This document shows positions 1,293 through 51,754 of a DNA stretch of 64,000 nt, piece after piece. The stretch lies in NCBI GenBank assembly GCA_902500125.1, contig GCA_902500125.1_4132.1. One strand, written 5' to 3'. A model generated the notes under the pieces. That model saw nothing but the letters and a program-made list of their open reading frames with translations. It did no database searches and was not told the DNA's origin. Source of the DNA: Escherichia coli (GTDB taxonomy: Bacteria > Pseudomonadota > Gammaproteobacteria > Enterobacterales > Enterobacteriaceae). Every line of letters starts with the position of its first letter. Position 1 is the first letter of the stretch. A program made the translations under genes and the position numbers.

Positions 1293-1525
1293 TATTGAGT
1301 TTTGTAGTTGCATTATTGTTTATGTTCTACCCTACACTAGTAGCAGTAGCCACTAAACGAAAGCTGGTGGATATCACTACTGTATTCTTGCTAAACGTGG
1401 CACTCGTTCTAGTGTCTATTATCATTCCCGTGAGCTTTACGGTTATTGATATTATTTCGGTATTACTCTTCGTGTTAAGTTATCTTATGCTTATTGAAGA
1501 AACAAATGTTGACAAACGTTCGTAG
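1283..1525 (+). CDS. small membrane protein (80 aa)
   Basis: ORF track; almost entirely hydrophobic (2-3 TM); AAGGTG upstream. Confidence 0.6.
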   Translation: MYLVLSFVVALLFMFYPTLVAVATKRKLVDITTVFLLNVALVLVSIIIPVSFTVIDIISVLLFVLSYLMLIEETNVDKRS

Positions 1526-1536
1526 TACTGTATAAT
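1509..1536 (+). promoter_or_regulatory. sigma70-like promoter
   Basis: TTGACA 1509-1514, 16-nt spacer containing AGTACTG, TATAAT 1531-1536; feeds 1583. Confidence 0.55.
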
Positions 1537-1582
1537 GGTTCCTGTAGTCTGAAACTTAACACTTAAACTTGAGGTAAAAAAT

Positions 1583-1909
1583 ATGCTATCAGTACTAATT
1601 TCAATTCCGTCTTTAATTCTGATTTGGCTTCTGGTTTACGAATGCTTTATTACTGATGATAATGATAAAAAAGAGTTCTCTGAGTTGTTTATGCTTGATT
1701 CACCGATTGTGCGTATTTTCTATACAGTCGTTGTGGTTTCAGTAATTGTATGGGTTTTGAGTTTTATCTTCCCACTCGGTGCAGTAGTTAAAACTTTGGA
1801 TTTAGTTGAGAACTTTGTTGCAATTATGTGGCTAATCAAAGCACTATTTGCAGGAAATGTTAAAATTTGGATTGATATTATCAAATTCAAGTTCACGAAT
1901 AAGATGTAA
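1583..1909 (+). CDS. membrane protein (108 aa)
   Basis: ORF track; GAGGT upstream; hydrophobic segments. Confidence 0.65.
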   Translation: MLSVLISIPSLILIWLLVYECFITDDNDKKEFSELFMLDSPIVRIFYTVVVVSVIVWVLSFIFPLGAVVKTLDLVENFVAIMWLIKALFAGNVKIWIDIIKFKFTNKM

Positions 1910-1933
1910 CAGTGAAAATATCTCTATAGTATT

Positions 1934-1970
1934 AAATACTTCTGTACATATATATAGTACAGAAGTATTT
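1934..1970 (+). terminator. 14-bp perfect hairpin, probable terminator
   Basis: AAATACTTCTGTAC / loop atatatata / GTACAGAAGTATTT directly after stop of 1583..1909; weak T tract. Confidence 0.5.
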
Positions 1971-1987
1971 CTCGTTAGAGGTTTGTT

Positions 1988-2347
1988 ATGAAGAGTTATA
2001 TAAAATTAATAGCACTTGTGTGTGCATTATTTTCATGTTTTAGTTATGGTGCAGCAGCAGAAACATATTGTCGTAGTACTAAGGGAACGTGGCATGTATT
2101 GACTAACGACCCTAGAAATGGTAAAAATATAGTTGTTGATGGTGTGATTTATCGTTTTAAAGTAGCAAGTATTATCGGTAATAAAAAAATCTCGACTTAT
2201 AGAGATGATTCTGGTACATTAGCAAACGTAATATTAATTGTAGACCCAAGAACTGGTAATGGTGATATCTATATAGTAATTTACTTGGACTCATCGGTAC
2301 GCCGTGACCTAGATATAGATAAATTGAACTTACACTGTGAAATATAG
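1988..2347 (+). CDS. small secreted protein, signal-peptide/Cys-pair family
   Basis: N-terminal signal peptide MKSYIKLIALVCALFSCFSYGAAA; Cys near mature N-terminus (ETYC) and C-terminus (LHCEI). Confidence 0.7.
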   Translation: MKSYIKLIALVCALFSCFSYGAAAETYCRSTKGTWHVLTNDPRNGKNIVVDGVIYRFKVASIIGNKKISTYRDDSGTLANVILIVDPRTGNGDIYIVIYLDSSVRRDLDIDKLNLHCEI

Positions 2348-2358
2348 GACTTAAAAAA

Positions 2359-2736
2359 ATGGTAAACACTATTTTACTTTTGTTGTTGAATATTCCAATT
2401 ATTCTGTCTTTTTTAATTTCTATTTTTATGGCAGGATATTGTTTAGTTGCAGTAATTCATTTCATTTTAACAAACAAATATGTCCTAATTTCTAAGCTTG
2501 ATTCTATTTTTGCTTGCGATTCGATTGCTTATAACTTGTGGTTAATTTGTTCTTGCATTATGGGAGTAACTTTCCTTCTGTATGTATTTGATGTCCTTGA
2601 CCAAAAGTTCGTATATATCAGTACTGGATTGGCTCTTTATCCTGCTACGTGGTACTTGATTTACGTTGGTGATATATGGTATAGTACTTATAAAGAATAT
2701 CAGTACAAGAAATCACTTAACGTTGGAGGAAAATAA
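2359..2736 (+). CDS. membrane protein (125 aa)
   Basis: ORF track; 3-4 hydrophobic segments. Confidence 0.65.
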   Translation: MVNTILLLLLNIPIILSFLISIFMAGYCLVAVIHFILTNKYVLISKLDSIFACDSIAYNLWLICSCIMGVTFLLYVFDVLDQKFVYISTGLALYPATWYLIYVGDIWYSTYKEYQYKKSLNVGGK

Positions 2737-2738
2737 TC

Positions 2739-3089
2739 ATGAAAATTATTTTATTTTTTGTATGTATGTTAATGTGTGGATTGTCATATGCTGAACCATT
2801 GGAAGGTTTAGTTTGTACAGATGGTAATATTAAACATATCTATCAAGGTGATAGTGACGATCGAGATATTGTATATATTGATGGACAATCATATACGTTT
2901 GTTAAAGAGCATACAGTAGGCGACATTAGCTTCACTGAGTTTTCTAACGACACAGACCCTAACTTCTTAGCGTTTATTGAAGTAGATGTATATGAAGATA
3001 GTAATGGTACACAATATGCTAAATTAGTTATGATGCGTCGTGGTGCTAAAGAAACTAGTTTTGGTGGCTTGTGTAAATATAAGGATTGA
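2739..3089 (+). CDS. small secreted protein, signal-peptide/Cys-pair family
   Basis: Signal peptide MKIILFFVCMLMCGLSYA; Cys pair LVCTDG ... GLCKYKD; paralog of 1988, 6964. Confidence 0.7.
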   Translation: MKIILFFVCMLMCGLSYAEPLEGLVCTDGNIKHIYQGDSDDRDIVYIDGQSYTFVKEHTVGDISFTEFSNDTDPNFLAFIEVDVYEDSNGTQYAKLVMMRRGAKETSFGGLCKYKD

Positions 3090-3093
3090 TATT

Positions 3094-3285
3094 ATGTTGA
3101 TTTATCAAAGTGATAATATTCGTGTTATGCAGCATCCCTACTTACAAATCTTTGATGTGCAGCAGTATATGGAAGGTGATGACCCAAGAACCTATGGTCG
3201 TAAGTATGATTACTTCACTGTAAAGCAGTGTAATAATATTAACGAAGTACGACAATTAGTTCAAGAACTTCAAAACAAAGGTTGA
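3094..3285 (+). CDS. hypothetical protein (63 aa)
   Basis: ORF 3040..3285 trimmed to ATG 3094 just after previous stop (3089); AAGGA upstream. Confidence 0.55.
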   Translation: MLIYQSDNIRVMQHPYLQIFDVQQYMEGDDPRTYGRKYDYFTVKQCNNINEVRQLVQELQNKG

Positions 3286-3311
3286 CTTCGGTCAGCCTTT
3301 TTTGTTATAAT
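3280..3311 (+). terminator. TTCG-loop terminator hairpin whose stem carries a -35 (terminator/promoter cassette)
   Basis: GGTTGAC-ttcg-GTCAGCC + T6; TTGACT 3282-3287 and TATAAT 3306-3311; stop TGA 3283-3285 lies inside the stem. Confidence 0.6.
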
Positions 3312-3339
3312 TCTCTTAATAAATTAGAGGATTTTAATT

Positions 3340-41995: not shown

Positions 41996-42055
41996 TTGCA
42001 ATTAGTTTTTAGTACTGTATAATAGTTTACATGAAGGGGAGAAATGATTCTCCCC
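41996..42055 (+). promoter_or_regulatory. PeSL-like cassette
   Basis: TTGCAA 41996; TATAAT 42018; hairpin 42036-42055. Confidence 0.7.
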
Positions 42056-42073
42056 AATAACAGGAGAAACAAA

Positions 42074-42312: not shown

Positions 42313-42453
42313 ATGAATCCTAACGGTTTAATTTACAGTACTCCTAAAACGAAAGCAGATAAAGCGAAAGCACGTAAAGCGAAAGTAAAGGAGTACATTA
42401 AGCAAGGCATGACGCGAAAGGCCGCACTACTCAGAGTAAAGGCTGAAAAATAA
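42313..42453 (+). CDS. small basic protein (46 aa)
   Basis: ATG directly after previous TAA; Lys-rich KADKAKARKAKVKEY. Confidence 0.4.
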   Translation: MNPNGLIYSTPKTKADKAKARKAKVKEYIKQGMTRKAALLRVKAEK

Positions 42454-42460
42454 TTGAAAA

Positions 42461-42548
42461 AAGGGTTGACTCCGGTCAGTCCCTTTGCTATTATATATAC
42501 ATACCAGCGATACACTGGCGGCCCATAGGGTGCACAAATGTATCTATT
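42461..42548 (+). promoter_or_regulatory. composite cassette: terminator hairpin carrying -35, plus U element core
   Basis: GGGTTGAC-tccg-GTCAGTCCC; TTGACT 42466, 17 nt, TATTAT 42489; core GCCCATAGGGTGC 42521-42533; TGTATCTATT 42539-42548. Confidence 0.55.
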
Positions 42549-42588
42549 ATATAAGTATTGAGTACTGAAAACTATTTTTAAAAAGTAC

Positions 42589-42648
42589 TTGCAAACTATC
42601 TCAATAAGCGTATAATGTTTTACATCGAAAGGGGAAACGGTTTCCCCT
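42589..42648 (+). promoter_or_regulatory. PeSL-like cassette
   Basis: TTGCAA 42589; TATAAT 42611; hairpin AGGGGAAA-cgg-TTTCCCCT 42630-42648. Confidence 0.7.
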
Positions 42649-42667
42649 GGTAATAAGGAAACAAATC

Positions 42668-43009
42668 ATGACTATCTCAATTGCTCAATCTAACTTTGAA
42701 AATGAAATCATCGCCCAGGCACTGCGTTTAAATGATGGTCGGGCCGAAATTAATTACGGTTTCAATTCAGGCGGTTGTGAAAAATATCAGTACTTTGTAA
42801 CGGCTGATGGCGGTGTCCTGGGTATCAATACAGTTATTGTAAACATCCAAAAAATTAATTTCAATGATCCAGACGATAGCCAGTTTTACATCACGGGCGT
42901 AGACGTGAACTATGAGGATGACTCACTAACTGATGACTACACTGGTGAAACGTTAGAAAGTGCATACTGTGAAGATGATTATCAGTCCGGTCCAGAAGAT
43001 TTCGAATAA
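42668..43009 (+). CDS. hypothetical acidic protein (113 aa)
   Basis: ORF track; TAAGGAAA SD. Confidence 0.65.
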   Translation: MTISIAQSNFENEIIAQALRLNDGRAEINYGFNSGGCEKYQYFVTADGGVLGINTVIVNIQKINFNDPDDSQFYITGVDVNYEDDSLTDDYTGETLESAYCEDDYQSGPEDFE

Positions 43010-43023
43010 TATAAAAAAATAGT

Positions 43024-43083
43024 TTGACAATAGATTATAGTACTGTATAATAGTTTACATCAAGGGGAGAAAAACTTCTCCCC
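43024..43083 (+). promoter_or_regulatory. PeSL-like cassette
   Basis: TTGACA 43024; TATAAT 43046; hairpin 43064-43083. Confidence 0.7.
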
Positions 43084-43105
43084 ACTAACAGAGAGAGAAA
43101 ACAAA

Positions 43106-43318
43106 ATGGCTAATATCTGCACTGTACTGAAAAATGCAAAACAAGTTTTATTTTCTGATCACGATCATTTAAACAAGGATATTACTGGCGTTCGGAATAT
43201 CAAAGATGTAAAAAGTGTTATGGGTATCTATTGCAATATGAAACGTGTTGGAACGTTCGGCGACAAAGTACTATACCAGGCAGGGGATTACAATTTTACA
43301 CTGACTATCATTAACTAA
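43106..43318 (+). CDS. hypothetical protein (70 aa)
   Basis: ORF track; GAGAGAGAAA SD region. Confidence 0.65.
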   Translation: MANICTVLKNAKQVLFSDHDHLNKDITGVRNIKDVKSVMGIYCNMKRVGTFGDKVLYQAGDYNFTLTIIN

Positions 43319-43337
43319 AAATATATTACCAGTACTA

Positions 43338-43365
43338 TTGACATAGTTTGATAGTACTGTATAAT
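43338..43365 (+). promoter_or_regulatory. class-2 promoter
   Basis: AGTACTATTGACA: TTGACA 43338, 16 nt, TATAAT 43360. Confidence 0.65.
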
Positions 43366-43409
43366 AAGTTTTATAAACAGTAGTTAACTTAACCTAAGAG
43401 AGAAATAAA

Positions 43410-43553
43410 ATGATCGCACTGGATTCATTCATCGACGCAGTACTGGCAAAAACTGGCGAGGATCTGACCGCAGAACAATACGCGATGATCGAGCAATGTC
43501 AGCAAGACGGTAAATCGGTGAAAGATACTGTTAAGATTATCCGCAAGATGTAA
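43410..43553 (+). CDS. small protein (47 aa)
   Basis: Not in ORF track; AAGAGAGAAA SD; MIALDSFIDAVLAKTGEDL... Confidence 0.5.
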   Translation: MIALDSFIDAVLAKTGEDLTAEQYAMIEQCQQDGKSVKDTVKIIRKM

Positions 43554-43560
43554 TATTATA

Positions 43561-43587
43561 GCCCACTGGTCAACGCTGGTGGGCTTT
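43561..43587 (+). terminator. terminator hairpin containing Chi
   Basis: GCCCAC...GTGGGC + TTT; 3' arm includes GCTGGTGG 43575-43582. Confidence 0.5.
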
Positions 43588-43658
43588 AATCCTTTACCCT
43601 ATACAATGCCAGTACTAAACCGTTTATCTCGTTAGAATGCGTTACAGGACGTTTGACA

Positions 43659-43856
43659 ATGATTAGCATGAAATCAGTACAAAAACAAATAGAAACATTA
43701 TCAAAAATTAAACGTAAACAGTACTCGTTAGAATATACAATCAATGGTAACTATCATCTAATGAAAGAGAATAATTTTATTGTCATTGATGAATCATTGC
43801 AAATCATTAGTATAGTACTGAAAGCATTAATCAATGACAGAAAAAAATTAAAATAA
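43659..43856 (+). CDS. hypothetical protein (65 aa)
   Basis: ORF-track TTG 43653 trimmed to ATG 43659; AT-richer than neighbours; weak SD. Confidence 0.45.
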   Translation: MISMKSVQKQIETLSKIKRKQYSLEYTINGNYHLMKENNFIVIDESLQIISIVLKALINDRKKLK

Positions 43857-43860
43857 TCTA

Positions 43861-43944
43861 TTGACAATATCATCCAGTACTGGCATAATACTTACATCAA
43901 GACGAGAACGTCACTAACCCATAGGGTGCACAAATGTAACTATA
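43861..43944 (+). promoter_or_regulatory. U element: promoter + conserved transcribed core
   Basis: TTGACA 43861, 17 nt, CATAAT 43884; ACTTACATCAAGACGAGAACGTCACTAACCCATAGGGTGC (core to 43930). Confidence 0.5.
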
Positions 43945-43951
43945 TAATATC

Positions 43952-44022
43952 GATCAATAAATGATCAAAAAAGTACTGGATCAATTTAACATAAGGAGTA
44001 TAATTCTGATCAATTCTTGATC
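43952..44022. repeat. cluster of five GATCAA(A/T) motifs
   Basis: GATC at 43952, 43963, 43979, 44008, 44019, each followed by AA; non-coding. Confidence 0.8.
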
Positions 44023-44084
44023 AAAGGCAATATACGCAGTTGAATTTATATAGACATTACAAAGGCGTTACTATCCGTGGTAAT

Positions 44085-44092
44085 GCTGGTGG
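44085..44092 (+). other. intergenic Chi octamer
   Basis: GCTGGTGG. Confidence 0.8.
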
Positions 44093-44185
44093 ATATGTAG
44101 TATCATATGGTTTGAATAAGATTAGCACTAGTAGTATTATTGTAGCATTACAGTACTATAGTATTTTTATAATGAGGTTAAAATA

Positions 44186-44443
44186 ATGGCAGTAGGATAC
44201 GCGAAAGACGGGGCCGAACAAGACGAGATTCACGCAGTGATTCAGGCCGCCGTTAACCACGCTAGAAAGCAAATTAACGCACAAAGAGAATCACTGGTAC
44301 ATTGCCTCGACTGCGGCGATAAAATCCCTGAGAATCGACGCCAGGCCGTTATAGGGTGCATGTATTGTATTACTTGCCAGGAGGATCATGATAGTACTTT
44401 TAAAAGAGATCCGCGTAATTGTTGGCATAGATCTATGAGATAA
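44186..44443 (+). CDS. TraR/DksA-family C4 zinc-finger protein (85 aa)
   Basis: CLDCGDKIPENRRQAVIGCMYCITCQ = CxxC-x17-CxxC with the IP..RR signature; GAGG SD. Confidence 0.8.
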   Translation: MAVGYAKDGAEQDEIHAVIQAAVNHARKQINAQRESLVHCLDCGDKIPENRRQAVIGCMYCITCQEDHDSTFKRDPRNCWHRSMR

Positions 44444-44450
44444 AAAGTAA

Positions 44451-44478
44451 TTGACAGTACTGAAAGATAGTGTATAAT
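44451..44478 (+). promoter_or_regulatory. sigma70-like promoter
   Basis: TTGACA 44451, 16 nt, TATAAT 44473 + GTTTTATATC. Confidence 0.65.
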
Positions 44479-44507
44479 GTTTTATATCTTAACTGAGGAT
44501 AGTAATC

Positions 44508-44864
44508 ATGGGAATACAACATATCACGCGTACTACTGACAATGGAGAGATCACTGGTTATCAGGTACAGGGCAAAGTAGCACAATTGCAGTACTGGTTT
44601 GTTAAACGTGGAATCATTGCACCGGATCTTGATTATGACCGTGTAGCGTTTATTGATTCTCTTTATGTTGATCCTGATAGTCGGGGCAATGGTGAAGGTA
44701 ACGAATTAATGAATGCCTTTATCGATGCCGCCGATGATTCAGATTGTATCATCTTAGAATGCGATACGGGAGAAGATAACGCCTTTAATCTTAAAGAATG
44801 GTACGAAGGTTTCGGATTCGAGGTATTGATAGATAGTGAATATCCTATCATGATTTTATCATAG
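44508..44864 (+). CDS. GNAT-family N-acetyltransferase (118 aa)
   Basis: LYVDPDSRGNGEGNELMNAF (motif A-like R-x-x-G-x-G) and WYEGFGFE tail; short for a GNAT. Confidence 0.55.
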   Translation: MGIQHITRTTDNGEITGYQVQGKVAQLQYWFVKRGIIAPDLDYDRVAFIDSLYVDPDSRGNGEGNELMNAFIDAADDSDCIILECDTGEDNAFNLKEWYEGFGFEVLIDSEYPIMILS

Positions 44865-44867
44865 TAC

Positions 44868-44924
44868 TTGCATTTAGTTTTCAGTACTGTTATAGTACTT
44901 GCATCAAGGGGAAACATCTTCCCC
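44868..44924 (+). promoter_or_regulatory. PeSL-like cassette, degenerate -10
   Basis: TTGCAT 44868; TTATAG 44890; hairpin GGGGAA-acatc-TTCCCC 44908-44924. Confidence 0.45.
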
Positions 44925-44942
44925 TACTAAGAGGAAATAAAA

Positions 44943-45131
44943 ATGGAAAACTTATCAAGTATTTTAGTACAAGATGATTTCGGTAATCCTGGAAGTGCTA
45001 TCATTGTTCGGGGCAATAAAGCAACGTTTGTTATTGCTGGTGGACCCGTACAGCGTAGCATTAAAAATAATGCTGTTACCATTAATAATGTACGCTATCG
45101 CTTAGATAAAGAATTAATTCATAAACTGTAA
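44943..45131 (+). CDS. hypothetical protein (62 aa)
   Basis: ORF track; AGAGGAAA SD. Confidence 0.6.
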   Translation: MENLSSILVQDDFGNPGSAIIVRGNKATFVIAGGPVQRSIKNNAVTINNVRYRLDKELIHKL

Positions 45132-45139
45132 AAAAGTAC

Positions 45140-45199
45140 TGGATAATAGATTATAGTACTGTATAATAGTTTACATGAAGGGGAGAAATGATTCTCCCC
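45140..45199 (+). promoter_or_regulatory. PeSL-like cassette (degenerate -35)
   Basis: TGGATA 45140; TATAAT 45162; hairpin 45180-45199. Confidence 0.55.
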
Positions 45200-45216
45200 A
45201 CTAAGAGGAAAGAAAA

Positions 45217-45429
45217 ATGCAAGGTCAACTAATCGTTCGTAAATGGTCTGATACTAACGAAAAACCGTGGGATGTACAATACATCGCCCCCAATGGTGAA
45301 TCCAGATATCAACCAGGTGTAACGCATAGTACTGAGCAATTCGCCGCCGCTCATCGCGAACGTCTGTTACAATCAATGCAGCAAGGTTTCGGTGAAAAAT
45401 TCATTCAGGATCATTGGCTGAAAGATTAA
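45217..45429 (+). CDS. hypothetical protein (70 aa)
   Basis: ORF track; AGAGGAAA SD. Confidence 0.65.
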   Translation: MQGQLIVRKWSDTNEKPWDVQYIAPNGESRYQPGVTHSTEQFAAAHRERLLQSMQQGFGEKFIQDHWLKD

Positions 45430-45436
45430 AAAGTAC

Positions 45437-45494
45437 TTGCACTGTACTGAATAAAGTGTATAATGTTTTATATCGGAAGGGGAATAGTTCCCCT
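45437..45494 (+). promoter_or_regulatory. PeSL-like cassette
   Basis: TTGCAC 45437; TATAAT 45459; hairpin AGGGGAA-tag-TTCCCCT 45478-45494. Confidence 0.7.
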
Positions 45495-45515
45495 CCTAAC
45501 AAAGAGGAAAGTATA

Positions 45516-45689
45516 ATGGTCCAGGTAGAATTAACAGTACTGAAAGATCTGTTTTATCGGATTGGTACTACTGGCGAATATCCGAAGGGTGATAATGCAA
45601 AACTTTACGTATCACTCGACTTATGGCAACGCGAACAATTAGCAACGGCCTGGCGTAAAGGCAAAGCAGATAGCGAGGTGAAAGCATGA
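45516..45689 (+). CDS. small protein (57 aa)
   Basis: Trimmed from 45414 to ATG 45516 after AGAGGAAA. Confidence 0.55.
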   Translation: MVQVELTVLKDLFYRIGTTGEYPKGDNAKLYVSLDLWQREQLATAWRKGKADSEVKA

Positions 45690-45835
45690 AAGAATTCTTA
45701 TTTGAAGTAGTGTTTCAAGGTGTCGGTAGTAACCAACTGATTCGCTCAAGTGGTTATAATGTTAACCAGGCATGGAATAACATTAAACAAATGTACCCGA
45801 ACGCTATCACCTATCGCAACCCGAAAGAAGTTTAA
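45686..45835 (+). CDS. small protein (49 aa)
   Basis: Not in ORF track; ATGA-coupled; MKEFLFEVVFQGVGSNQ... Confidence 0.45.
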   Translation: MKEFLFEVVFQGVGSNQLIRSSGYNVNQAWNNIKQMYPNAITYRNPKEV

Positions 45836-45848
45836 AAATAATTGAAAA

Positions 45849-45930
45849 AGGGATTGACTCCGGTCAGTCCCTTTGCTATTATATACGCATAGAAACAAAT
45901 TAGCCCACCGGGTGCATAAATGTATCTATT
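45849..45930 (+). promoter_or_regulatory. composite cassette: terminator hairpin carrying -35, plus U element core
   Basis: AGGGATTGAC-tccg-GTCAGTCCCT; TTGACT 45854, TATTAT 45877; core GCCCACCGGGTGC 45903-45915; TGTATCTATT 45921-45930; Chi 45935-45942 follows. Confidence 0.55.
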
Positions 45931-45982
45931 GTTTGCTGGTGGCTAGTACTATCAAGTACTGAAAACTATTTTTAAAAAGTAC

Positions 45983-46010
45983 TTGCATTGTAATTAGAAT
46001 CAAGTATAAT
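45983..46010 (+). promoter_or_regulatory. early-type promoter (upstream of tandem pair)
   Basis: TTGCAT 45983; TATAAT 46005. Confidence 0.6.
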
Positions 46011-46015
46011 GTTTT

Positions 46016-46090
46016 ACATCAGGACGGGGAACGAAACAAGTAACCCCGTTAAGTAGTCCAGGAGTAAGACATACGAAAAACTCCCCTGAT
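46016..46090 (+). ncRNA. conserved structured leader RNA (copy 2 of 3)
   Basis: Near-identical to 35877-35953; inner stem ACGGGG/CCCCGT. Confidence 0.4.
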
Positions 46091-46098
46091 AAAATAGT

Positions 46099-46126
46099 TT
46101 GACAATAGAAAGTAAACGAGTATAAT
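46099..46126 (+). promoter_or_regulatory. sigma70-like promoter (downstream of tandem pair)
   Basis: TTGACA 46099, 16 nt, TATAAT 46121. Confidence 0.6.
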
Positions 46127-46159
46127 ACTTACATCAACCACTGATAAGGAAACATTAAA

Positions 46160-46435
46160 ATGCGGATTCTACTGACAGCTAACGAAATCGAACAAGTACT
46201 GACTACTAACCTGGAACAATGGAAACGTGATGCAGATATCCAGGCGGTTCAATGGCTTAACGATAAGTTAACGCCGGATGACTTAAGCAAGATTGTAGAT
46301 CCTCAATTCTACGAAGATATTCACGACACGGCTTTAAGCGTCGAGGATGTACTTGATAAGCATTACATTAATACCGATTTACAGGTTTACGGGCGTAAAA
46401 ACTTTATCACTATTCACGACATTTACAATACTTAA
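46160..46435 (+). CDS. hypothetical protein (91 aa)
   Basis: ORF track; AAGGAAA SD. Confidence 0.65.
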   Translation: MRILLTANEIEQVLTTNLEQWKRDADIQAVQWLNDKLTPDDLSKIVDPQFYEDIHDTALSVEDVLDKHYINTDLQVYGRKNFITIHDIYNT

Positions 46436-46438
46436 GTA

Positions 46439-46500
46439 TTGACAAAGTATCTTAGTACTGTATAATAGTTTACATCAAGGCGGGGAAATGGTTCCCCTCC
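46439..46500 (+). promoter_or_regulatory. PeSL-like cassette
   Basis: TTGACA 46439; TATAAT 46461; hairpin 46479-46500. Confidence 0.7.
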
Positions 46501-46522
46501 TAACAAAGAGAGAGAAATAAAA

Positions 46523-46846
46523 ATGGCTATGATCCTTACCCAGAAAGTGGAATTGAAAATTGTAACCTCCTTTGACATTAAAGTTAATCGCTGGACTGAT
46601 CGGAACGGCAATACTTACCACTCTTGCTACGTGTCTGCGTTAATTGGCGACCGCTGGGAAGACCTGGGACACGAAACCTTTACATACGGTTACGGTACGC
46701 AAGGCGAATACACTGGTTTGGAGATCATTAAAGAAACCGTTATAGGTTTCAACCCGAAAGAAAAAGTTATGCACCGCATCGAAAAAGAGATTAACAAAGA
46801 AATAACAGTTCGCTACTACGATGTAAAACGTAAGAAAGACATGTAA
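46523..46846 (+). CDS. hypothetical protein (107 aa), paralog of 40543..40887
   Basis: ORF track; shared motifs (see 40543). Confidence 0.7.
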   Translation: MAMILTQKVELKIVTSFDIKVNRWTDRNGNTYHSCYVSALIGDRWEDLGHETFTYGYGTQGEYTGLEIIKETVIGFNPKEKVMHRIEKEINKEITVRYYDVKRKKDM

Positions 46847-46868
46847 TAGAATCCATTTAAAGTACTAT

Positions 46869-46897
46869 TTGACATTGCCCAGATAGTACTTTATAAT
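46869..46897 (+). promoter_or_regulatory. sigma70-like promoter
   Basis: TTGACA 46869, 17 nt, TATAAT 46892; a decayed copy lies upstream of 35010. Confidence 0.6.
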
Positions 46898-46941
46898 AGA
46901 CTCTAACTTGTAGTACTAACTCAACTAATAGGATGTATACC

Positions 46942-47337
46942 ATGATTACTAAATTCTACGCTACCCGTGAAGCTGCCCGTATTGTTGCACGCGAGGAAGG
47001 AGCAGCATTTAAAGACATGGGAACGACAGCACCGAAAGGTCAACGCTGGGCCGTACAGTTCAAAGAAATCTCTGATATTGTGAATTCACCTGAGCCAGTA
47101 CTAACAGCAGCAGAACTAAAACGAGCGGATATGCTGGCGGCAATACTTGACGCACAAGATGAGTTTATCGCTGATTCTGATATCAAAGTACAGGTAAACC
47201 ACACCGCATGGACTCACGCGGATCACCTGGCAAACCTTAAGCGTCCAAGTGAACTGATTCGCAACCAGAAAGAGATCCGACATGATCGTAAGGGTAATCG
47301 TGTAACAGTATACAGTAAACGCCGCCAGGTTATCTAA
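46942..47337 (+). CDS. hypothetical protein (131 aa), paralog of 35010..35276
   Basis: ATG 46942 is 9 nt after AGGA (ATG 46933 overlaps the SD). Confidence 0.65.
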   Translation: MITKFYATREAARIVAREEGAAFKDMGTTAPKGQRWAVQFKEISDIVNSPEPVLTAAELKRADMLAAILDAQDEFIADSDIKVQVNHTAWTHADHLANLKRPSELIRNQKEIRHDRKGNRVTVYSKRRQVI

Positions 47338-47359
47338 TAACTTGCAGTACTAACAACAC

Positions 47360-47384
47360 GGCGGGATCAGTTCCCGCCTTTTTT
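47360..47384 (+). terminator. rho-independent terminator
   Basis: GGCGGGA-tcagt-TCCCGCC + T6. Confidence 0.75.
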
Positions 47385-47398
47385 ATAGGACAAACAAA

Positions 47399-47653
47399 AT
47401 GATTAAGGTTCAACTATATAAAGATAACATCTTACGGGTACACTATAAAGCACCGAAGAGAATCATCACAAAGGCCGTACAGCTTGCTAATGAGTTTATT
47501 AATGGTAACCTATTACCAAGGAAGTTAAGCAACGGGAAACTGCGTGTAATCGACGTGGACACTAACAACAGGATAGTAATCGAGAACACAGGAAAAATAA
47601 ACCTTTATGAGCATCAACAATACAATAAGAAAATAAAACTAATATCACGTTGA
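47399..47653 (+). CDS. hypothetical protein (84 aa)
   Basis: ORF track; AGGA upstream. Confidence 0.6.
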   Translation: MIKVQLYKDNILRVHYKAPKRIITKAVQLANEFINGNLLPRKLSNGKLRVIDVDTNNRIVIENTGKINLYEHQQYNKKIKLISR

Positions 47654-47678
47654 CAGTACTCAAATGTTTTAGTATTAT
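47650..47678 (+). promoter_or_regulatory. sigma70-like promoter (about 60-bp unit repeated at 47924)
   Basis: TTGACA 47650, 17 nt, TATTAT 47673. Confidence 0.6.
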
Positions 47679-47706
47679 GTACACATACCAACACGGGAGA
47701 AACAAA

Positions 47707-47925
47707 ATGAAATTATCTAAAATCGAAAAGAAAACTATTGATGAAGCAGTTAAGCACGGTTATACCTTTCGTAATGATTCACATTTTACCAATTTTCAAC
47801 AGGGGTATCGTACTATTAAAAAACTAATTGACAAAGGTTTATTAGTTGAAGTCAATAATGGGAACGGTATCGAGTATCAGCCAACCCAAGACGCATTATC
47901 TTTAAAGAAATATAATATTATCTAA
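47707..47925 (+). CDS. hypothetical protein (72 aa)
   Basis: ORF-track TTG 47650 trimmed to ATG 47707 after GGGAGAAA. Confidence 0.6.
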   Translation: MKLSKIEKKTIDEAVKHGYTFRNDSHFTNFQQGYRTIKKLIDKGLLVEVNNGNGIEYQPTQDALSLKKYNII

Positions 47926-47954
47926 TTGACAGTACTCAAATGTTTTAGTACTAT
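47926..47954 (+). promoter_or_regulatory. sigma70-like promoter (repeat of 47650)
   Basis: TTGACA 47926, 17 nt, TACTAT 47949. Confidence 0.55.
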
Positions 47955-47983
47955 ATGTACATACCAACACGGGGAAAAACAAA

Positions 47984-48226
47984 ATGATTACTTTAGAAAA
48001 ACGTATCAAAGAAACTACATCGCTGGTGGAATTGTTAACAGTACTCAAATGTAAAACAACACCATTCAGCACGCCGGACTTTATTAATATGGTTGATGTT
48101 AATGGTCGCTATCGTATCACGGTCGAACAAGGAGCGGCGAAAGTATTCAGTACTAAAAACACGAAGGAAGTGATCCACGCCGTTAATGTTAAAAAAGTAG
48201 TTGCCATTGATAGTAAAGTACTGTAA
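47984..48226 (+). CDS. hypothetical protein (80 aa)
   Basis: ORF track; GGGGAAAA upstream; contains Chi at 48022. Confidence 0.6.
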   Translation: MITLEKRIKETTSLVELLTVLKCKTTPFSTPDFINMVDVNGRYRITVEQGAAKVFSTKNTKEVIHAVNVKKVVAIDSKVL

Positions 48227-48257
48227 TATAGTTTCATTAACTCAAGGAGAACATGCA

Positions 48258-48842
48258 ATGCGTAATTATACTAAATTCATCCGTACACTGTCAGAAATGG
48301 AAACCAACAAAGAGATCCTTTCAGCTTGTCGGTTAGCTGGCCTGGAGATCATCGGTGCTGGTTCTTCCCGTATAGTTTTCGCTTTAAATGATCGGTTAGT
48401 GATTAAGGTCGCGAATTGTGATGCGGGTGTAGAACAAAATGAAACTGAATGTAAGGTATGGAATTTTTTAGACTATGACCGCCCTCAGTTGAAACAGTAC
48501 TTTGCAAAGGTGCATATGCATTTATGCGATCCTGATAATATGTTTATCGTTATGGATCGGTTGAGTACTGCAAGCAAAGGTAGTGTGAAGCACGTAAACG
48601 CGTGCAATGAATTAAAGTACAATATTAAACGTAATGCAATCGAACGCCAGCACCGCTTTGCTGATGCACTACAACACGTCGATGATACATTATCAACACT
48701 AACGATAAGAGATATCAGAAAACAGAATATCGGCCAGGATCGTAATGGCCTTATTAAAGTACTTGATTACGGTTTAACCTGCAATATCTGGAATCAGTAC
48801 TATAAAAAGCGTGATGTGGCAGCAAGTAAGGTAACACGATAA
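48258..48842 (+). CDS. protein kinase-like fold protein (194 aa)
   Basis: Trimmed to ATG 48258 after AAGGAG; G-loop IIGAGSSRIVF, LVIKVA lysine, IRDIRKQNIG catalytic-loop-like, VLDYGL (DFG-like). Confidence 0.55.
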   Translation: MRNYTKFIRTLSEMETNKEILSACRLAGLEIIGAGSSRIVFALNDRLVIKVANCDAGVEQNETECKVWNFLDYDRPQLKQYFAKVHMHLCDPDNMFIVMDRLSTASKGSVKHVNACNELKYNIKRNAIERQHRFADALQHVDDTLSTLTIRDIRKQNIGQDRNGLIKVLDYGLTCNIWNQYYKKRDVAASKVTR

Positions 48843-48855
48843 AAAAGATTAAAAA

Positions 48856-48942
48856 AGGGATTGACTCCGGTCAGTCCCTTTGCTATTATATATCCATTGA
48901 GAGATAACTCACTGACCCATAGGGTGCGGAAGTGTATCTATT
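48856..48942 (+). promoter_or_regulatory. composite cassette: terminator hairpin carrying -35, plus U element core
   Basis: TTGACT 48861, TATTAT 48884; core CCCATAGGGTGC 48916-48927; TGTATCTATT 48933-48942. Confidence 0.55.
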
Positions 48943-48983
48943 ATATAAGTATTCAGTACTGAAAACTATTTTTTAAAAAGTAC

Positions 48984-49044
48984 TTGCATTGTACTTAGAA
49001 TCAAGTATAATGTTTTATATCGAGAGGGGGAAATGGTTCTCCCT
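48984..49044 (+). promoter_or_regulatory. PeSL-like cassette
   Basis: TTGCAT 48984; TATAAT 49006; hairpin 49025-49044. Confidence 0.7.
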
Positions 49045-49065
49045 GGTATATTAAGGAATAAAATC

Positions 49066-49287
49066 ATGACTACAATGACTTGCATTTACGCTTCCAATCG
49101 TCTGAATGATGCGGCCTTTAATGTTGATTCAGAATATCAATGTTATCGGGATGAAAATAAAAAAGTTTTTGTAGTTGATAATAATGGTTTCCATATTGAA
49201 TTACAATCCGGCTTCACTGGTGTTGATGGTAAATCAGTATGGGGCGTACAGGATGATAAAGGTACATATCATTTTAAACGTAATTAA
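49066..49287 (+). CDS. hypothetical protein (73 aa)
   Basis: Trimmed from 49033 to ATG 49066 after AAGGAA. Confidence 0.65.
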   Translation: MTTMTCIYASNRLNDAAFNVDSEYQCYRDENKKVFVVDNNGFHIELQSGFTGVDGKSVWGVQDDKGTYHFKRN

Positions 49288-49291
49288 GTAT

Positions 49292-49350
49292 TTGACAAAG
49301 TATCTTAGTACTGTATAATAGTTTACATCAAGGGGAGAATAGTTCTCCCC
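49292..49350 (+). promoter_or_regulatory. PeSL-like cassette
   Basis: TTGACA 49292; TATAAT 49314; hairpin GGGGAGAA-tag-TTCTCCCC 49332-49350. Confidence 0.7.
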
Positions 49351-49371
49351 GATACTAAAAGGAATAAAATC

Positions 49372-49776
49372 ATGACTACTACTAATCTTGCTCGGAATAT
49401 CGCCAACGATAAAAATCATGCTGCAATGGTCGCTGGTTACATTGAAGCTATGCAATTCAGTACTGTACATAATGATAACGGCGATTACCTGGAAGATTAT
49501 GAGTTATCTGATGAAGCACGTCAAGCGGCGGTGATTGCATGTTCTCGCTTCATTGAGAAACACGGTAATGATCTGGAAGTAGTTCGCGGTATGTTTATTG
49601 ATTACGGTTATGAGCAAGCTGGTCATGATCTGTTCCTTACCCGCGAAGGTCACGGAACTGGTTTTTGGGATCGTGGTTTAGGTCACTATGGCGATGTATT
49701 CACGAAGTACTGCGAAGAAATCAACGTTTGCGATCCCTATGTAGGCGATGATAACTTAATCTATATGGGCGAATAA
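49372..49776 (+). CDS. hypothetical protein (134 aa)
   Basis: ORF track; AAGGAA SD; motif GHDLFLTREGHGTGFWDRG; function not recognised. Confidence 0.7.
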   Translation: MTTTNLARNIANDKNHAAMVAGYIEAMQFSTVHNDNGDYLEDYELSDEARQAAVIACSRFIEKHGNDLEVVRGMFIDYGYEQAGHDLFLTREGHGTGFWDRGLGHYGDVFTKYCEEINVCDPYVGDDNLIYMGE

Positions 49777-49782
49777 AAGTAT

Positions 49783-49841
49783 TTGACAAAGTATATCAGT
49801 ACTGTATAATAGTTTACATCAAGGGGAGAATAGTTCTCCCC
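49783..49841 (+). promoter_or_regulatory. PeSL-like cassette
   Basis: TTGACA 49783; TATAAT 49805; hairpin 49823-49841 (same as 49332). Confidence 0.7.
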
Positions 49842-49863
49842 AATACTAAAAGGAAACAAAATT

Positions 49864-50136
49864 ATGTCCAGCTACTCCGCTACTATGATCATTAAAGATA
49901 TGAACGGTAATCCTACTTCTGCTGGTGGATCATTTGGAAATATTAACTTAGATGGGCGGTTATCCATGCAATCAGCCATCGATGCAGCGAAAGAAGTTTT
50001 TAAGAATGAATGTACTGTTAGTAAGCTGGATTATATGGGTTTCGCTATCGAGAAAACTACTCGTTTTGTGAACTACAAAAATCCACTGATGATTGATACT
50101 AACCTGAAAGCTAACGAAGTGGGGTACTTATTATGA
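49864..50136 (+). CDS. hypothetical protein (90 aa)
   Basis: ORF track; AAGGAAA SD; contains Chi at 49921. Confidence 0.65.
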   Translation: MSSYSATMIIKDMNGNPTSAGGSFGNINLDGRLSMQSAIDAAKEVFKNECTVSKLDYMGFAIEKTTRFVNYKNPLMIDTNLKANEVGYLL

Positions 50137-50324
50137 CAGTAGAAGAAGTAAAAAAAGTACTGGCAGTACTACGATATCATAATCATTGCAAGGTGAAGAA
50201 TGATCCTGATTATCTTGATTCATCCCTGGAGGAAGACACCTTGAACGCTATAAGCCATATGCAGACATTAGCAAAGCGTATGACTGAAAAGAACATGCCG
50301 GACTATATCGGAAATAAAATTTAA
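50133..50324 (+). CDS. hypothetical protein (63 aa)
   Basis: ATGA-coupled to previous gene. Confidence 0.6.
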   Translation: MTVEEVKKVLAVLRYHNHCKVKNDPDYLDSSLEEDTLNAISHMQTLAKRMTEKNMPDYIGNKI

Positions 50325-50331
50325 AAAGTAC

Positions 50332-50393
50332 TTGCATTGTAGTTAGATTAACGTATAATGTTTTATATCGAGAGGGGGAAATGGTTTCCCCTC
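50332..50393 (+). promoter_or_regulatory. PeSL-like cassette
   Basis: TTGCAT 50332; TATAAT 50354; hairpin 50372-50393. Confidence 0.7.
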
Positions 50394-50411
50394 AAGTCCA
50401 GGAGATACACA

Positions 50412-50675
50412 ATGAACACTATCGAAATCACTATCAATGCACACGTATACGACAACGTAGTACTGCAAACTACTATGACCGCTAATGATACCAGTACTTT
50501 GCGGAATACTGTTATTAGTGCCGTATGTGCTGCAATCGGTGATGTATCCCTGGAAAATGCAGAACATATCAACAACGGTTTCACTATGTGCAAGCGTGAT
50601 AACGCAAAACATATCATCGTGGAAGGTTACGGCGGTGTAGAATTTAATGTTTATATGAAAAAAGTACTTGCATAA
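50412..50675 (+). CDS. hypothetical protein (87 aa)
   Basis: Trimmed from 50358 to ATG 50412 after AGGAGA; C-terminus KKVLA* is encoded by the next cassette's AAAAAAGTACTTGCATAA. Confidence 0.65.
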   Translation: MNTIEITINAHVYDNVVLQTTMTANDTSTLRNTVISAVCAAIGDVSLENAEHINNGFTMCKRDNAKHIIVEGYGGVEFNVYMKKVLA

Positions 50676-50724
50676 TAACTAAAACAAAGTATAATGTTTT
50701 GCATAGGGGGAGATATCCTCCCCC
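50668..50724 (+). promoter_or_regulatory. PeSL-like cassette
   Basis: TTGCAT 50668; TATAAT 50690; hairpin GGGGGAG-atatc-CTCCCCC 50706-50724. Confidence 0.7.
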
Positions 50725-50742
50725 ACTAAAAGGAGTAATAAA

Positions 50743-50967
50743 ATGGCTAACTTTGATGAACTGATGCGGGAAGTAGCTAACCTGGCAGAAGAGAAGAAAT
50801 CATTCGATTCTATCTATAACACCGCTCACCGTGATTCAGTACTGGCATGTAACCAGGATCAAAAAGATGAACTAATCGCCACCTATCATGAAGCATGGAA
50901 GTACTACCGACAATGGGAGAAAGAAGAAAGTGAGTCTACCATTGACGGCCTCAATAATCTAATCTAA
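50743..50967 (+). CDS. hypothetical protein (74 aa)
   Basis: ORF track; AAGGAG SD. Confidence 0.65.
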   Translation: MANFDELMREVANLAEEKKSFDSIYNTAHRDSVLACNQDQKDELIATYHEAWKYYRQWEKEESESTIDGLNNLI

Positions 50968-50986
50968 AAGTTTTATTTCAGTACTA

Positions 50987-51015
50987 TTGACATAGCTTGA
51001 TAGTACTGATGTAAT
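50987..51015 (+). promoter_or_regulatory. class-2 promoter
   Basis: AGTACTATTGACA: TTGACA 50987, 17 nt, TGTAAT 51010. Confidence 0.55.
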
Positions 51016-51043
51016 AACTTTACTAACTACAAGGGGAAACATA

Positions 51044-51301
51044 ATGGATCAGTTCACACAATATCGGGTAAATCCTCAAGCTATGGCCTACGTAGAAGAC
51101 CATAAAACGTTACCAGTACTGCAACCAGTTAAAGGCCATATCTATCGTGCAATGTCGTGGTGTGCGGCCCAGGATGGCTATAAAACCGTAGCCGTTGGTA
51201 TGTACTGCGGTAATGGTGAATGGTTTGATCCAAATAATCCGGTATCCATTGACAGTACTGAAAAAATGAAATGGGCCGACTACATCGAAGATATTTCATA
51301 A
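51044..51301 (+). CDS. hypothetical protein (85 aa)
   Basis: ORF track; AGGGGAAA upstream. Confidence 0.65.
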   Translation: MDQFTQYRVNPQAMAYVEDHKTLPVLQPVKGHIYRAMSWCAAQDGYKTVAVGMYCGNGEWFDPNNPVSIDSTEKMKWADYIEDIS

Positions 51302-51308
51302 AAACTAT

Positions 51309-51369
51309 TTGACAGTACTAACCAGTAATGTATAATGTTTTACATAGAGCGGGGGAATAGTTCTCCCGC
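51309..51369 (+). promoter_or_regulatory. PeSL-like cassette
   Basis: TTGACA 51309; TATAAT 51331; hairpin 51349-51369. Confidence 0.7.
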
Positions 51370-51391
51370 CAATAGTTTGGAGTAAAACATT

Positions 51392-51592
51392 ATGTCTATC
51401 GCTATCGCCCTGGTTGAAGTACTGAAAGAAGCTAAAGCCAACCAGATCGACGTAAAGATCCAGGAACTACAAAACGGCTTAATCGGCTGTACTTGTACCG
51501 CTGGTGGAGCGGCAGACTATCGAGAACACGAATCACTCGAATCACTGGTTCGGTATCTTACCATGATCGTTGATGATTGGAGAATCATCTAA
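51392..51592 (+). CDS. hypothetical protein (66 aa)
   Basis: ORF track; GGAG SD; contains Chi at 51500. Confidence 0.65.
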   Translation: MSIAIALVEVLKEAKANQIDVKIQELQNGLIGCTCTAGGAADYREHESLESLVRYLTMIVDDWRII

Positions 51593-51608
51593 CAAAAAAG
51601 AATAAAAA

Positions 51609-51687
51609 AGGGATTGACTCCGGTCAGTCCCTTTGCTATTATATACGCATAGACAAAAACTAGCCCACAGGGTGCATAGGTGTATCC
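51609..51687 (+). promoter_or_regulatory. composite cassette: terminator hairpin carrying -35, plus U element core
   Basis: TTGACT 51614, TATTAT 51637; core GCCCACAGGGTGC 51663-51675; TGTATCC 51681; Chi 51722-51729 follows. Confidence 0.55.
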
Positions 51688-51754
51688 AAAATATATAGTT
51701 AATAACGGTGAGTAACTATCTGCTGGTGGAACTAAAACTATTAATAAAAAAGTA

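Follow-up and report, generated by a model that had tools for sequence, protein, structure and literature searches.

Phage Chi sites were reportedly given a general treatment by Bobay, Touchon and Rocha in 2013, in which Chi-rich phages were poor in recombinases. For its growth, phage P1 depends on the recombination of its terminal repeats by RecA and RecBCD, and the P1 genome contains 50 Chi sites, which are densest around the packaged ends (bioRxiv 10.1101/2021.07.08.451572; PMC12315714). Lambdoid phages of the LLS class have terminally clustered Chi sites, with twenty in the active and three in the inactive orientation (Genome Res 2025, PMC12315714). The chromosome of Escherichia coli contains 217 Chi sites per Mbp, which are distributed almost uniformly, are 13 times commoner in open reading frames (ORFs) than outside them, and are linked to codon usage (bioRxiv 10.1101/2021.07.08.451572). 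Chi was active in all tested enteric bacteria, according to McKittrick & Smith 1989 as cited in bioRxiv 10.1101/2021.07.08.451572. Here, we describe an array of twelve Chi octamers in the direct terminal repeat (DTR) of an E. coli jumbo phage, which is contained in a 64,000-nucleotide stretch of DNA (contig GCA_902500125.1_4132.1 of the assembly GCA_902500125.1). The whole stretch is referred to as the window.

The window contains the terminal repeat of a jumbo phage

In a megablast comparison with phage records, the window is 92–95% identical to Asteriusvirus phages, which are jumbo myoviruses that infect E. coli. The matching records, 350–384 kb long, are those of JP4, G17, WPEC5, fEgEco12, and PBECO4/121Q-like phages. 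The G+C content of the window varies between 31 and 40%, and searches of the window for tRNAs and for Rfam families both returned zero matches. An earlier interpretation of the window made from its letters alone, referred to here as the sequence-only reading, had pointed to a host with RecBCD that recognizes the octamer. The similarity to coliphages agrees with this, and makes E. coli the probable host of this exact phage.

The window carries a single assembled copy of the DTR of an Asteriusvirus-type phage. By homology to the DTRs of its relatives, the unit spans positions 32398–53090 (20,693 bp) and has a G+C content of 38.8%, compared to about 34% outside it. The alignment of the window to fEgEco12 starts at 32398, which corresponds to position 1 of fEgEco12, and the alignment to G17 stops at 53090, which corresponds to position 1 of G17. 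Nucleotides 1–20668 of the linear G17 record are identical to nucleotides 350150–370817, with 0 mismatches. Genes matching the window between 32 and 53 kb are present twice, in tandem, in JP4, and self-comparison of the JP4 genome revealed a 100%-identical duplication with a period of 20,114 bp, the unit of which corresponds to 32398–53090. Both JP4 copies are located in the middle of the record (PQ330092.1, 122793–163020), each with gene annotations of its own; what the record represents is a linear genome in permuted form, with no real internal duplication. PhageTerm identified a DTR of 20,993 bp in fEgEco12, which restriction digests confirmed (PMC13070987), and for G17, sequence coverage led its authors to report about 20 kb of terminal redundancy (PMC6563267). 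Because three records agree, and the ends of one of them were confirmed experimentally, the segment 32398–53090 is the DTR unit, which is homologous to the DTR mapped in the genus and has the same limits. The genome ends are not of the cos type, since the relatives carry exact direct terminal repeats of about 20 kb. Judging from these relatives, the DTR would constitute both the left end of the virion DNA, starting at 32398, and its right end, finishing at 53090.

Chi octamers are concentrated in the terminal repeat

An exact scan of the window identified sixteen copies of the Chi sequence 5′-GCTGGTGG-3′. Twelve are on the plus strand, starting at positions 1363, 11380, 32988, 39553, 43575, 44085, 45036, 45935, 48022, 49921, 51500, and 51722, and four are on the minus strand, starting at 24700, 24958, 32976, and 39491. 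The sequence-only reading gave the same coordinates except for 32976, which it placed at 32977. In 100 dinucleotide-preserving shuffles of the window, the octamer occurred 0.63 times on average over both strands, with a maximum of two, and Markov models of orders 1–4 predicted 0.3–1.3 copies per strand. The strong enrichment that had been claimed is thus confirmed. All 24 one-mismatch neighbors of Chi were tested, and each has zero to two copies on the plus strand. The excess therefore does not extend beyond the exact octamer. The only frequent relative of Chi is GGTGGTGG, which occurs twelve times on the minus strand and originates from a glycine-rich gene. The flanks of all sixteen Chi sites differ from each other, which shows that Chi is not carried by a longer repeat.

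The enrichment is not a general property of the genome but is confined to the DTR, which holds all twelve sites of the array, ten on the plus and two on the minus strand. Shuffling of the DTR predicts 0.23 copies and a third-order Markov model 0.55, so that the observed number is about 20–50 times the expectation. The remaining 43.3 kb of the window contains four sites, two on each strand. At 580 sites per Mbp, the density of Chi in the DTR exceeds both the compositional expectation and the density of the host chromosome, as is the case for P1.

The distribution of Chi over a whole genome was determined for the relative EC22.5-2, the 351,992-bp genome of which was assembled whole with one copy of the DTR (21.3 kb). 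Eleven of its 28 Chi sites are inside the DTR, which represents 6% of the genome (binomial P = 3 × 10⁻⁷). There is one site per 1.9 kb in the DTR and one per 19.5 kb elsewhere, which corresponds to a tenfold difference in density and to the concentration of Chi in terminal repeats that characterizes P1. The 17 sites outside the DTR (51 per Mbp) compare to 2.5 expected from shuffling and 8.6 from the third-order Markov model. They are mildly above expectation, at roughly twice the Markov value. The sequence-only reading had proposed a composition-corrected count over the genome and regarded counts near expectation as a refutation of its claim. Such counts were roughly what we found outside the repeat, and the strong enrichment within it sharpens the finding rather than undermines it. 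An origin of the DTR from host DNA was rejected. There are zero matches to the DTR in 5,426 complete E. coli genomes, and therefore, the Chi sites were not imported with host DNA.

Chi sites face the ends of the virion DNA

The ten plus-strand sites of the array face RecBCD entering at the right end of the DTR, and the outermost of them, at 51722, is located 1361 bp inside. The two minus-strand sites are directed toward the left end, from which 32976 is 579 bp and 39491 is 7.1 kb away, and would be read by RecBCD entering there. In five Asteriusvirus DTRs, the outermost Chi sites are positioned 578–586 bp from the left end and 1361–1362 bp from the right end. The arrangement relative to double-strand ends thus appears as predicted for an orientation-dependent signal, with Chi facing outward at both ends of the DTR in a ratio of 10:2. 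The argument that the array would act on RecBCD approaching from one particular side had been made correctly from the direction of the octamers. It was overlooked, however, that the array marks a terminal repeat and is therefore placed at both physical ends of the virion DNA.

The left-most element of the array is a "double-Chi" palindrome, CCACCAGC-TTGT-GCTGGTGG, at 32976–32995, which is 579–598 bp from the left end of the DTR. It forms a perfect 8-bp hairpin (ΔG −9.8, z-score −3.8) without a T-tail. The minus-strand copy (32976–32983) is the first Chi encountered by RecBCD from the left end, and the plus-strand copy (32988–32995) is the last one for RecBCD coming from the right end. The palindrome is kept in all five Asteriusvirus DTRs, at positions 578–598. 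The second left-end-facing site (39491–39498, minus strand) is intergenic, 25 nucleotides past a terminator (39446–39466), and is intact in three of four relatives, whereas G17 reads CCACTAGC. The right-end-facing site at 39553–39560 on the plus strand is also intergenic, upstream of a promoter cassette at about 39616, and is kept in all four relatives. The sequence-only reading considered the minus-strand sites to be hairpin partners of plus-strand ones. The sites 32976 and 32988 do form a palindrome, but the minus-strand sites are Chi in the orientation active at the left end and not merely partners. A fold test of long-range pairing between 39491 and 39553 gave a result no better than shuffles (z-score −1.3).

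The remaining right-end-facing sites are all on the plus strand. The site at 43575–43582 constitutes the 3′ arm of a terminator-like hairpin at 43560–43585, AGCCCACTGGT-CAAC-GCTGGTGGGCT, which is followed by TTTAAT (ΔG −9.1, z-score −3.5), and this Chi is kept in four of four relatives. The site at 44085–44092, located in the GCT-GGT-GG frame of a small ORF, is otherwise present only in fEgEco12. Those at 45036–45043, 49921–49928, and 51500–51507 are in coding sequence in the Ala-Gly-Gly frame, and JP4 reads GCTGGCGG in place of the last one. The coding site at 48022–48029 is in the frame xxG-CTG-GTG-Gxx. Thus, four of the five coding sites in the DTR are read as Ala-Gly-Gly and one as Leu-Val. 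The intergenic site at 45935–45942 follows the copy of a repeated cassette at 45834–45926 and is ahead of the next promoter. The outermost site (51722–51729) is intergenic, 33 nucleotides upstream of the promoter element TTGACA at 51755.

Selection acts on the octamer itself

The coding status of the sites in the DTR was mapped using the annotation of fEgEco12. Coding sequence accounts for 68% of the DTR, yet seven of the twelve Chi sites (32976, 32988, 39491, 39553, 43575, 45935, and 51722) are intergenic (P = 0.05), one more than the six that had been claimed. The non-coding 32% of the DTR holds seven of the sites, so that Chi is not explained by coding, which is a further characteristic of the P1 sites. 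The mean identity of the flanks of Chi is 0.27, which equals the random level and is the lowest among the 88 octamers with at least eight plus-strand copies in the DTR. Words from the promoter cassettes of the DTR have flank identities of 0.66–0.74.

All twelve sites have orthologs among the DTRs of fEgEco12, G17, JP4, and EC22.5-2. The octamer is intact in 43 of the 46 alignable cases, compared to 73.8% for background 8-mers (binomial P = 7 × 10⁻⁴), with the background determined from genomes so closely related (overall identity of 94–96%) that the power of the test is limited. Nine of the eleven sites that could be aligned in all four relatives are intact in all of them, compared to 56% in the background (P = 0.07). 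The mostly intergenic location of the sites, the randomness of their flanks, and their conservation support selection acting on the Chi octamer itself, as DNA.

The sites had also been described as built into intergenic cassettes. This is true of some sites only. The site at 43575 forms the terminator arm. Those at 45935 and 51722 follow copies of a cassette in differing registers, 9 and 36 nucleotides past its end, respectively, and the other two copies are without Chi. Chi is thus located at places where the sequence can vary freely and is not a fixed part of a module. The 93-nucleotide cassette is present in four copies (42446–42538, 45834–45926, 48841–48933, and 51594–51686), two with and two without a downstream Chi. 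It contains a 12-bp hairpin, AAAGGGATTGACTCCGGTCAGTCCCTTT, that overlaps a promoter-like TTGACT-17-TATTAT, followed by CCCATAGGGTGC or its variant. The cassette may be a regulated promoter or the start of a small RNA.

Chi arrays in the terminal repeats of other phages

Klebsiella phage fENko-Kae01 clusters separately at the genus level, its average nucleotide identity to fEgEco12 being 28.6% (PMC13070987, Table 2). Its annotated DTR, determined by PhageTerm to be 19,736 bp long, contains twelve Chi sites on the plus and two on the minus strand, whereas the next 30 kb contains one on each strand (709 and 66 sites per Mbp, respectively; P = 1 × 10⁻⁴). The similarity between the DTRs of fENko-Kae01 and of the window is limited to promoter cassettes and a few weak gene matches. 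Since the two repeats share almost no homology, neither array is a copy of the other. The DTR of fENko-Kae01 nevertheless contains a double-Chi palindrome at 484–503, which has the loop TTAA and flanks unrelated to those in the window, and another minus-strand Chi at 7013. The Chi at 19354 is part of a terminator arm, GGCCACTGGT-TAAC-GCTGGTGGCC, of the same design as the hairpin at 43560–43585 of the window, and in four other cases, Chi is positioned in the spacer that separates the −35 and −10 elements of a sigma70-type promoter. Two short stretches of the window, 32573–32634 and 33725–33776, are 92–93% identical to 86–192 and 1073–1124 of fENko-Kae01. They are located in the gene-free first 1.7 kb or so next to the left end, and are candidates for terminase or end-recognition sequences.

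The repeat of Pectobacterium phage CBB (Mimasvirus), 22,456 bp long as inferred from coverage and pulsed-field gel electrophoresis, contains seven plus-strand and two minus-strand Chi sites, compared to two and one in the next 27.5 kb (P = 0.035). From left to right, the orientations of the sites are −+−+++++++++ in the window, −+++−+++++++++ in fENko-Kae01, and −+++−++++ in CBB. The site nearest to the left end is thus in the minority orientation in all three clades (product of chance probabilities 0.005). The double-Chi palindrome is present in Asteriusvirus and fENko-Kae01 but not in CBB. The first 50 kb of phage T5 (AY543070.1) contains only two Chi sites, at 8127 and 8689, both on the plus strand and inside the 10.2-kb repeat. 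They are in the orientation active at the right end, about 1.5 and 2.1 kb from the right boundary of the repeat, and their number is too small to interpret. The double-Chi palindrome was also used as a probe in IMG/VR, where it matched 46 contigs, all but one of them unrelated, mostly of high G+C content and with few Chi sites, and this search was uninformative about the breadth of the phenomenon.

Proposed role of the Chi array

The DTR is loaded by selection with outward-facing Chi octamers, which are in excess, confined to the repeat, polar, conserved, recurrent in other clades, and independent of coding and repeat context. We propose that the Chi sites in the redundant repeat probably halt RecBCD and load RecA for the recombination of one repeat with the other, as was proposed for P1. 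Both the access of RecBCD to the ends and recombination, rather than protection alone, as the outcome are inferred.

The following sequence of events can be proposed. When the linear DNA becomes exposed in the cell, before the presence of any phage protein, the host RecBCD would load onto a free end and degrade the DNA inward. The first DNA available to RecBCD at either virion end is the DTR, with its host-type promoters and small early-type genes. Because the ends are redundant, the degradation would not cause a loss of unique information. An array, unlike a single site, would make the recognition of Chi nearly certain before the enzyme exits the repeat. The probability that RecBCD recognizes a single Chi site was assumed to be 0.3. 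At this value, ten sites would result in recognition with a probability of 0.97, and two sites with a probability of 0.51. After encountering Chi, RecBCD would spare the 3′ strand and load RecA on a 3′ tail with the DTR sequence, which would then invade the other copy of the DTR in the same or a sister genome. The outcome would be a circle or a concatemer junction, together with a primer for recombination-dependent replication. Circularization through the DTR was suggested by the authors of the fEgEco12 study, who mentioned neither Chi nor RecBCD (PMC13070987). The 10:2 asymmetry of the array predicts that the right end, in the orientation of the window, is more exposed. Injection of this end ahead of the other could be the reason, or else its being the free end of the concatemer once the terminase has cut, as in lambda.

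A Pfam scan of the 45 ORFs of the DTR detected no Gam, Abc2, or other known domain of RecBCD inhibitors or end protectors, and most of the ORFs are orphans. The only matches were to DUF7249 (twice), DksA/TraR, GNAT, a ParE-like domain, and, weakly, a kinase.

Several points weigh against this role. The boundaries of the DTR in the phage from the window are assigned by homology, the close relatives are phylogenetically non-independent, and the signal in CBB is modest, with repeat boundaries known from coverage and electrophoresis only. The literature search found no experimental data on RecA or RecBCD dependence, or on RecBCD attack, for Asteriusvirus. Phage CBB, which is Rak2-like, was reported to encode the T4-type proteins UvsX, UvsW, gp46/47, and gp32. 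Because they have recombination proteins of their own, Rak2-like phages are not dependent on host recombination as Rec-less lambdoids are. A virion protein capping the ends, similar to gp2 of T4, could keep RecBCD off the DNA. Finally, with only two left-facing Chi sites, about half of the RecBCD enzymes entering from the left would pass.

A rival explanation is that the array serves solely as a nuclease brake or an anti-defence element. Chi would switch off the destructive mode of RecBCD, so that the ends and the early genes survive until functions of the phage take over. Recombination by RecA would then be irrelevant, with UvsX and gp46/47 doing the job, and the array may also reduce the RecBCD products that feed the acquisition of spacers by CRISPR systems. 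All the sequence evidence for recombination between the repeats fits such a brake equally well, the relatives have their own recombination machinery, and the DTR is full of sigma70-type promoters and small early-type genes in need of immediate expression. However, protection would work as well if Chi were located just inside the unique DNA, and a restriction to the repeat as strict as this one is more readily explained if the tail has to match the sequence of the other end. Furthermore, the Chi-dependent survival of linear DNA in E. coli generally needs RecA (bioRxiv 10.1101/2021.07.08.451572). We consider it unlikely that the array acts as a brake alone.

Alternatively, Chi may act late in infection, when the plus-strand sites would protect or recombine the free concatemer end produced by the terminase cut, with the other end occluded, during packaging or rolling-circle replication, as in lambda. 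The 10:2 asymmetry resembles that of lambda and the LLS class, where one exposed end sets the active orientation. Late action leaves unexplained, however, why the Chi nearest to the left end is of the minority orientation in three of three clades, and RecBCD has presumably been neutralized, or the host DNA machinery dismantled, by late infection. The probability of this alternative is low. The octamer could also be the site of a factor other than RecBCD, such as an early regulator of the phage, an accessory protein of the terminase, or a protein of the nucleoid, in which case its identity to Chi would be coincidental. Some copies are positioned in promoter spacers, in fENko-Kae01, or in a terminator arm, and one copy close to the end is palindromic, which is the usual shape of a site for a dimeric protein. 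Nevertheless, the exact 8-mer is identical to the Chi of the host in phages that infect E. coli, Klebsiella, and Pectobacterium; its register relative to promoters, terminators, or genes is not fixed, and an extended consensus is lacking; five of the twelve sites are coding; and the end-directed orientation bias is the one predicted for RecBCD. Such a coincidence is very improbable. A compositional or codon-usage by-product of a G+C-richer DTR with a G-rich coding strand and favored GCT-GGT-GG codons, to which the G+C content of the DTR, the Ala-Gly-Gly frame of most of its coding sites, and the two clear by-products in the glycine-rich gene lend some plausibility, is effectively refuted for the DTR sites, since models fitted to the DTR expect only 0.2–0.55 sites, neighboring octamers are unenriched, seven of the twelve sites are non-coding, and the GC skew of the DTR is no stronger than elsewhere.

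The Chi-armed terminal repeat may be a general and so far unrecognized design of Enterobacterales phages with long DTRs. The repeat would be a sacrificial buffer with Chi arrays, facing outward, that would hand the incoming genome over to RecBCD and RecA, to be circularized or concatemerized before phage expression, even in virulent jumbo phages with T4-type recombination. We put forward this generalization tentatively, as somewhat short of an even chance. If it is true, the polarity of Chi alone, 10:2 in the window, would indicate which end is exposed first, and the double-Chi palindrome would be a bidirectional stop at the inner and outer edge of the repeat. The proposed role gives the unexplained repeats of about 20 kb in Rak2-like phages and Asteriusvirus a concrete, testable function, and connects these repeats with the recombination signal of E. 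coli that has been known the longest. The exploitation of Chi by phages, as opposed to its avoidance, so far described for temperate P1 and Rec-less lambdoids, would reach virulent jumbo phages. Clusters of Chi and their polarity offer a way to find and orient physical genome ends in collapsed assemblies from the sequence only. In the use of phages of this genus as therapy candidates, the recBCD and recA status of the host, or defences that target RecBCD, may alter efficiency.

Other features of the window

The four Chi sites outside the DTR do not belong to the array. Those at 1363–1370 and 11380–11387, on the plus strand, are coding and probably represent background; the latter has an ortholog in EC22.5-2 at 349015. 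The minus-strand sites at 24700 and 24958 (24700–24965) are in the frame GCT-GGT-GG (Ala-Gly-Gly) of the glycine-rich ORF 24642–25379. The sequence-only reading placed them correctly in a minus-strand glycine-rich gene. They are most simply explained as codon by-products, in line with the twelve copies of GGTGGTGG on that strand. Three Chi sites of EC22.5-2 are likewise in frame in paralogous glycine-rich genes. The glycine-rich gene with the two background sites is part of a minus-strand array of seven or eight paralogous genes at 18562–27816, which encode proteins of 245–411 amino acids and have conserved start regions and upstream leaders. Some of their homologs in G17 are annotated as "putative DNA condensation protein" or RCC1/ATS1-like.

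The DTR is flanked on both sides by families of very short repeated units, at 28309–31756 and 53296–53804. These units either contain the ribosome-binding-site-like AGGTACTAATATG with the start of a mini-ORF at their end or are tandem gene units of about 205 bp, and they match runs of genes for about 60 amino acids in the annotation of G17. Within the DTR, positions 34107–52263 are occupied by a chain of small genes, each with its own consensus sigma70 promoter, with about 30 cassette copies in total. Perfect TTGACA-16/17-TATAAT promoters have nine matches between 38.9 and 52.4 kb. The promoters are followed by a conserved 5′-leader hairpin of the GGGGAGAA-N-TTCTCCCC type and a ribosome-binding site, and the unit looks like a modular cassette for early-gene expression. 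Two paralogous ORFs with DUF7249 are encoded on the plus strand at 34643–34921 and 36694–36963, 2042 bp apart. An 84-residue ORF at 47399–47653, also on the plus strand, contains the ParE-like toxin domain PF24732 (E = 4.6 × 10⁻¹¹), a toxin-type fold that is unexpected in a gene expressed so early by a virulent jumbo phage.

Among the top 25 words of the window, AGTACT words are dominant, and they have near-random flanks, for example at 32996–33020, 45943–45965, and 48030–48050. Some of the copies are part of promoter cassettes (AAGTACTTGCA at −35 and CAGTACTGTATAAT at −10), while many stand alone. AGTACT words also head the word list of the CBB repeat, and may be a motif specific to this group, with a role in promoters, regulation, or modification.

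Comparison with known systems

The closest counterpart of the array is found in P1 and its relatives P7 and D6, in which Chi is also far above expectation, denser than in the host, and concentrated at the packaged ends and terminal repeats. The Chi sites of P1 are as frequent in non-coding as in coding DNA, and their proposed role is the recombination by RecBCD and RecA of the repeats of the injected DNA. Unlike the phage described here, P1 is temperate and packages by the headful from pac, so that its ends are spread over 20–40 kb and its repeats are variable. The P1 sites are on both strands (31 of 50 on the top strand) in broad zones, whereas the ratio here is 10:2, with the minority sites at the opposite end. 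The DTR from the window belongs to a virulent 350-kb jumbo myovirus, is an exact and invariant repeat of 20.7 kb, and its array stops at the repeat boundaries. The dependence of P1 on recA and recBC is experimental, while the array described here is known from its sequence.

LLS-class lambdoids share with the window numerous end-clustered Chi sites in the orientation active at the exposed end, which were read as harnessing the host RecBCD. They differ in having cos ends, genomes of about 30–58 kb, and no terminal repeat, and in being without a recombination module, which is the proposed reason for their Chi sites. Since Rak2-like phages encode UvsX, UvsW, and gp46/47, this rationale is not directly applicable to them, which argues against their membership in the Rec-less class. 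Phage T5 is similar in its long exact DTR of 10.2 kb at both ends and in the pre-early genes driven by host promoters that act first. Unlike in the window, its two Chi sites are too few for an array, and T5 has nicks and two-step injection, neither of which is known in this group. The chromosome of E. coli uses the same octamer and the same enzyme, with an orientation bias relative to the arrival of RecBCD. The difference is that the sites here reach 580 per Mbp in a block of 39% G+C content and are mostly intergenic.

Our literature search, the coverage of which was incomplete, found no report tying Chi to the terminal repeats of Asteriusvirus, Rak2-like, or other jumbo phages. The enrichment of Chi with an end-related polarity is already known from P1 and its relatives and from LLS-type lambdoids. 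Distinctive of the array described here are that it ends at the boundaries of the DTR, that it faces outward on two sides, with a conserved double-Chi palindrome close to the end in Asteriusvirus and fENko-Kae01, and that it occurs in virulent jumbo phages with recombination genes of their own.

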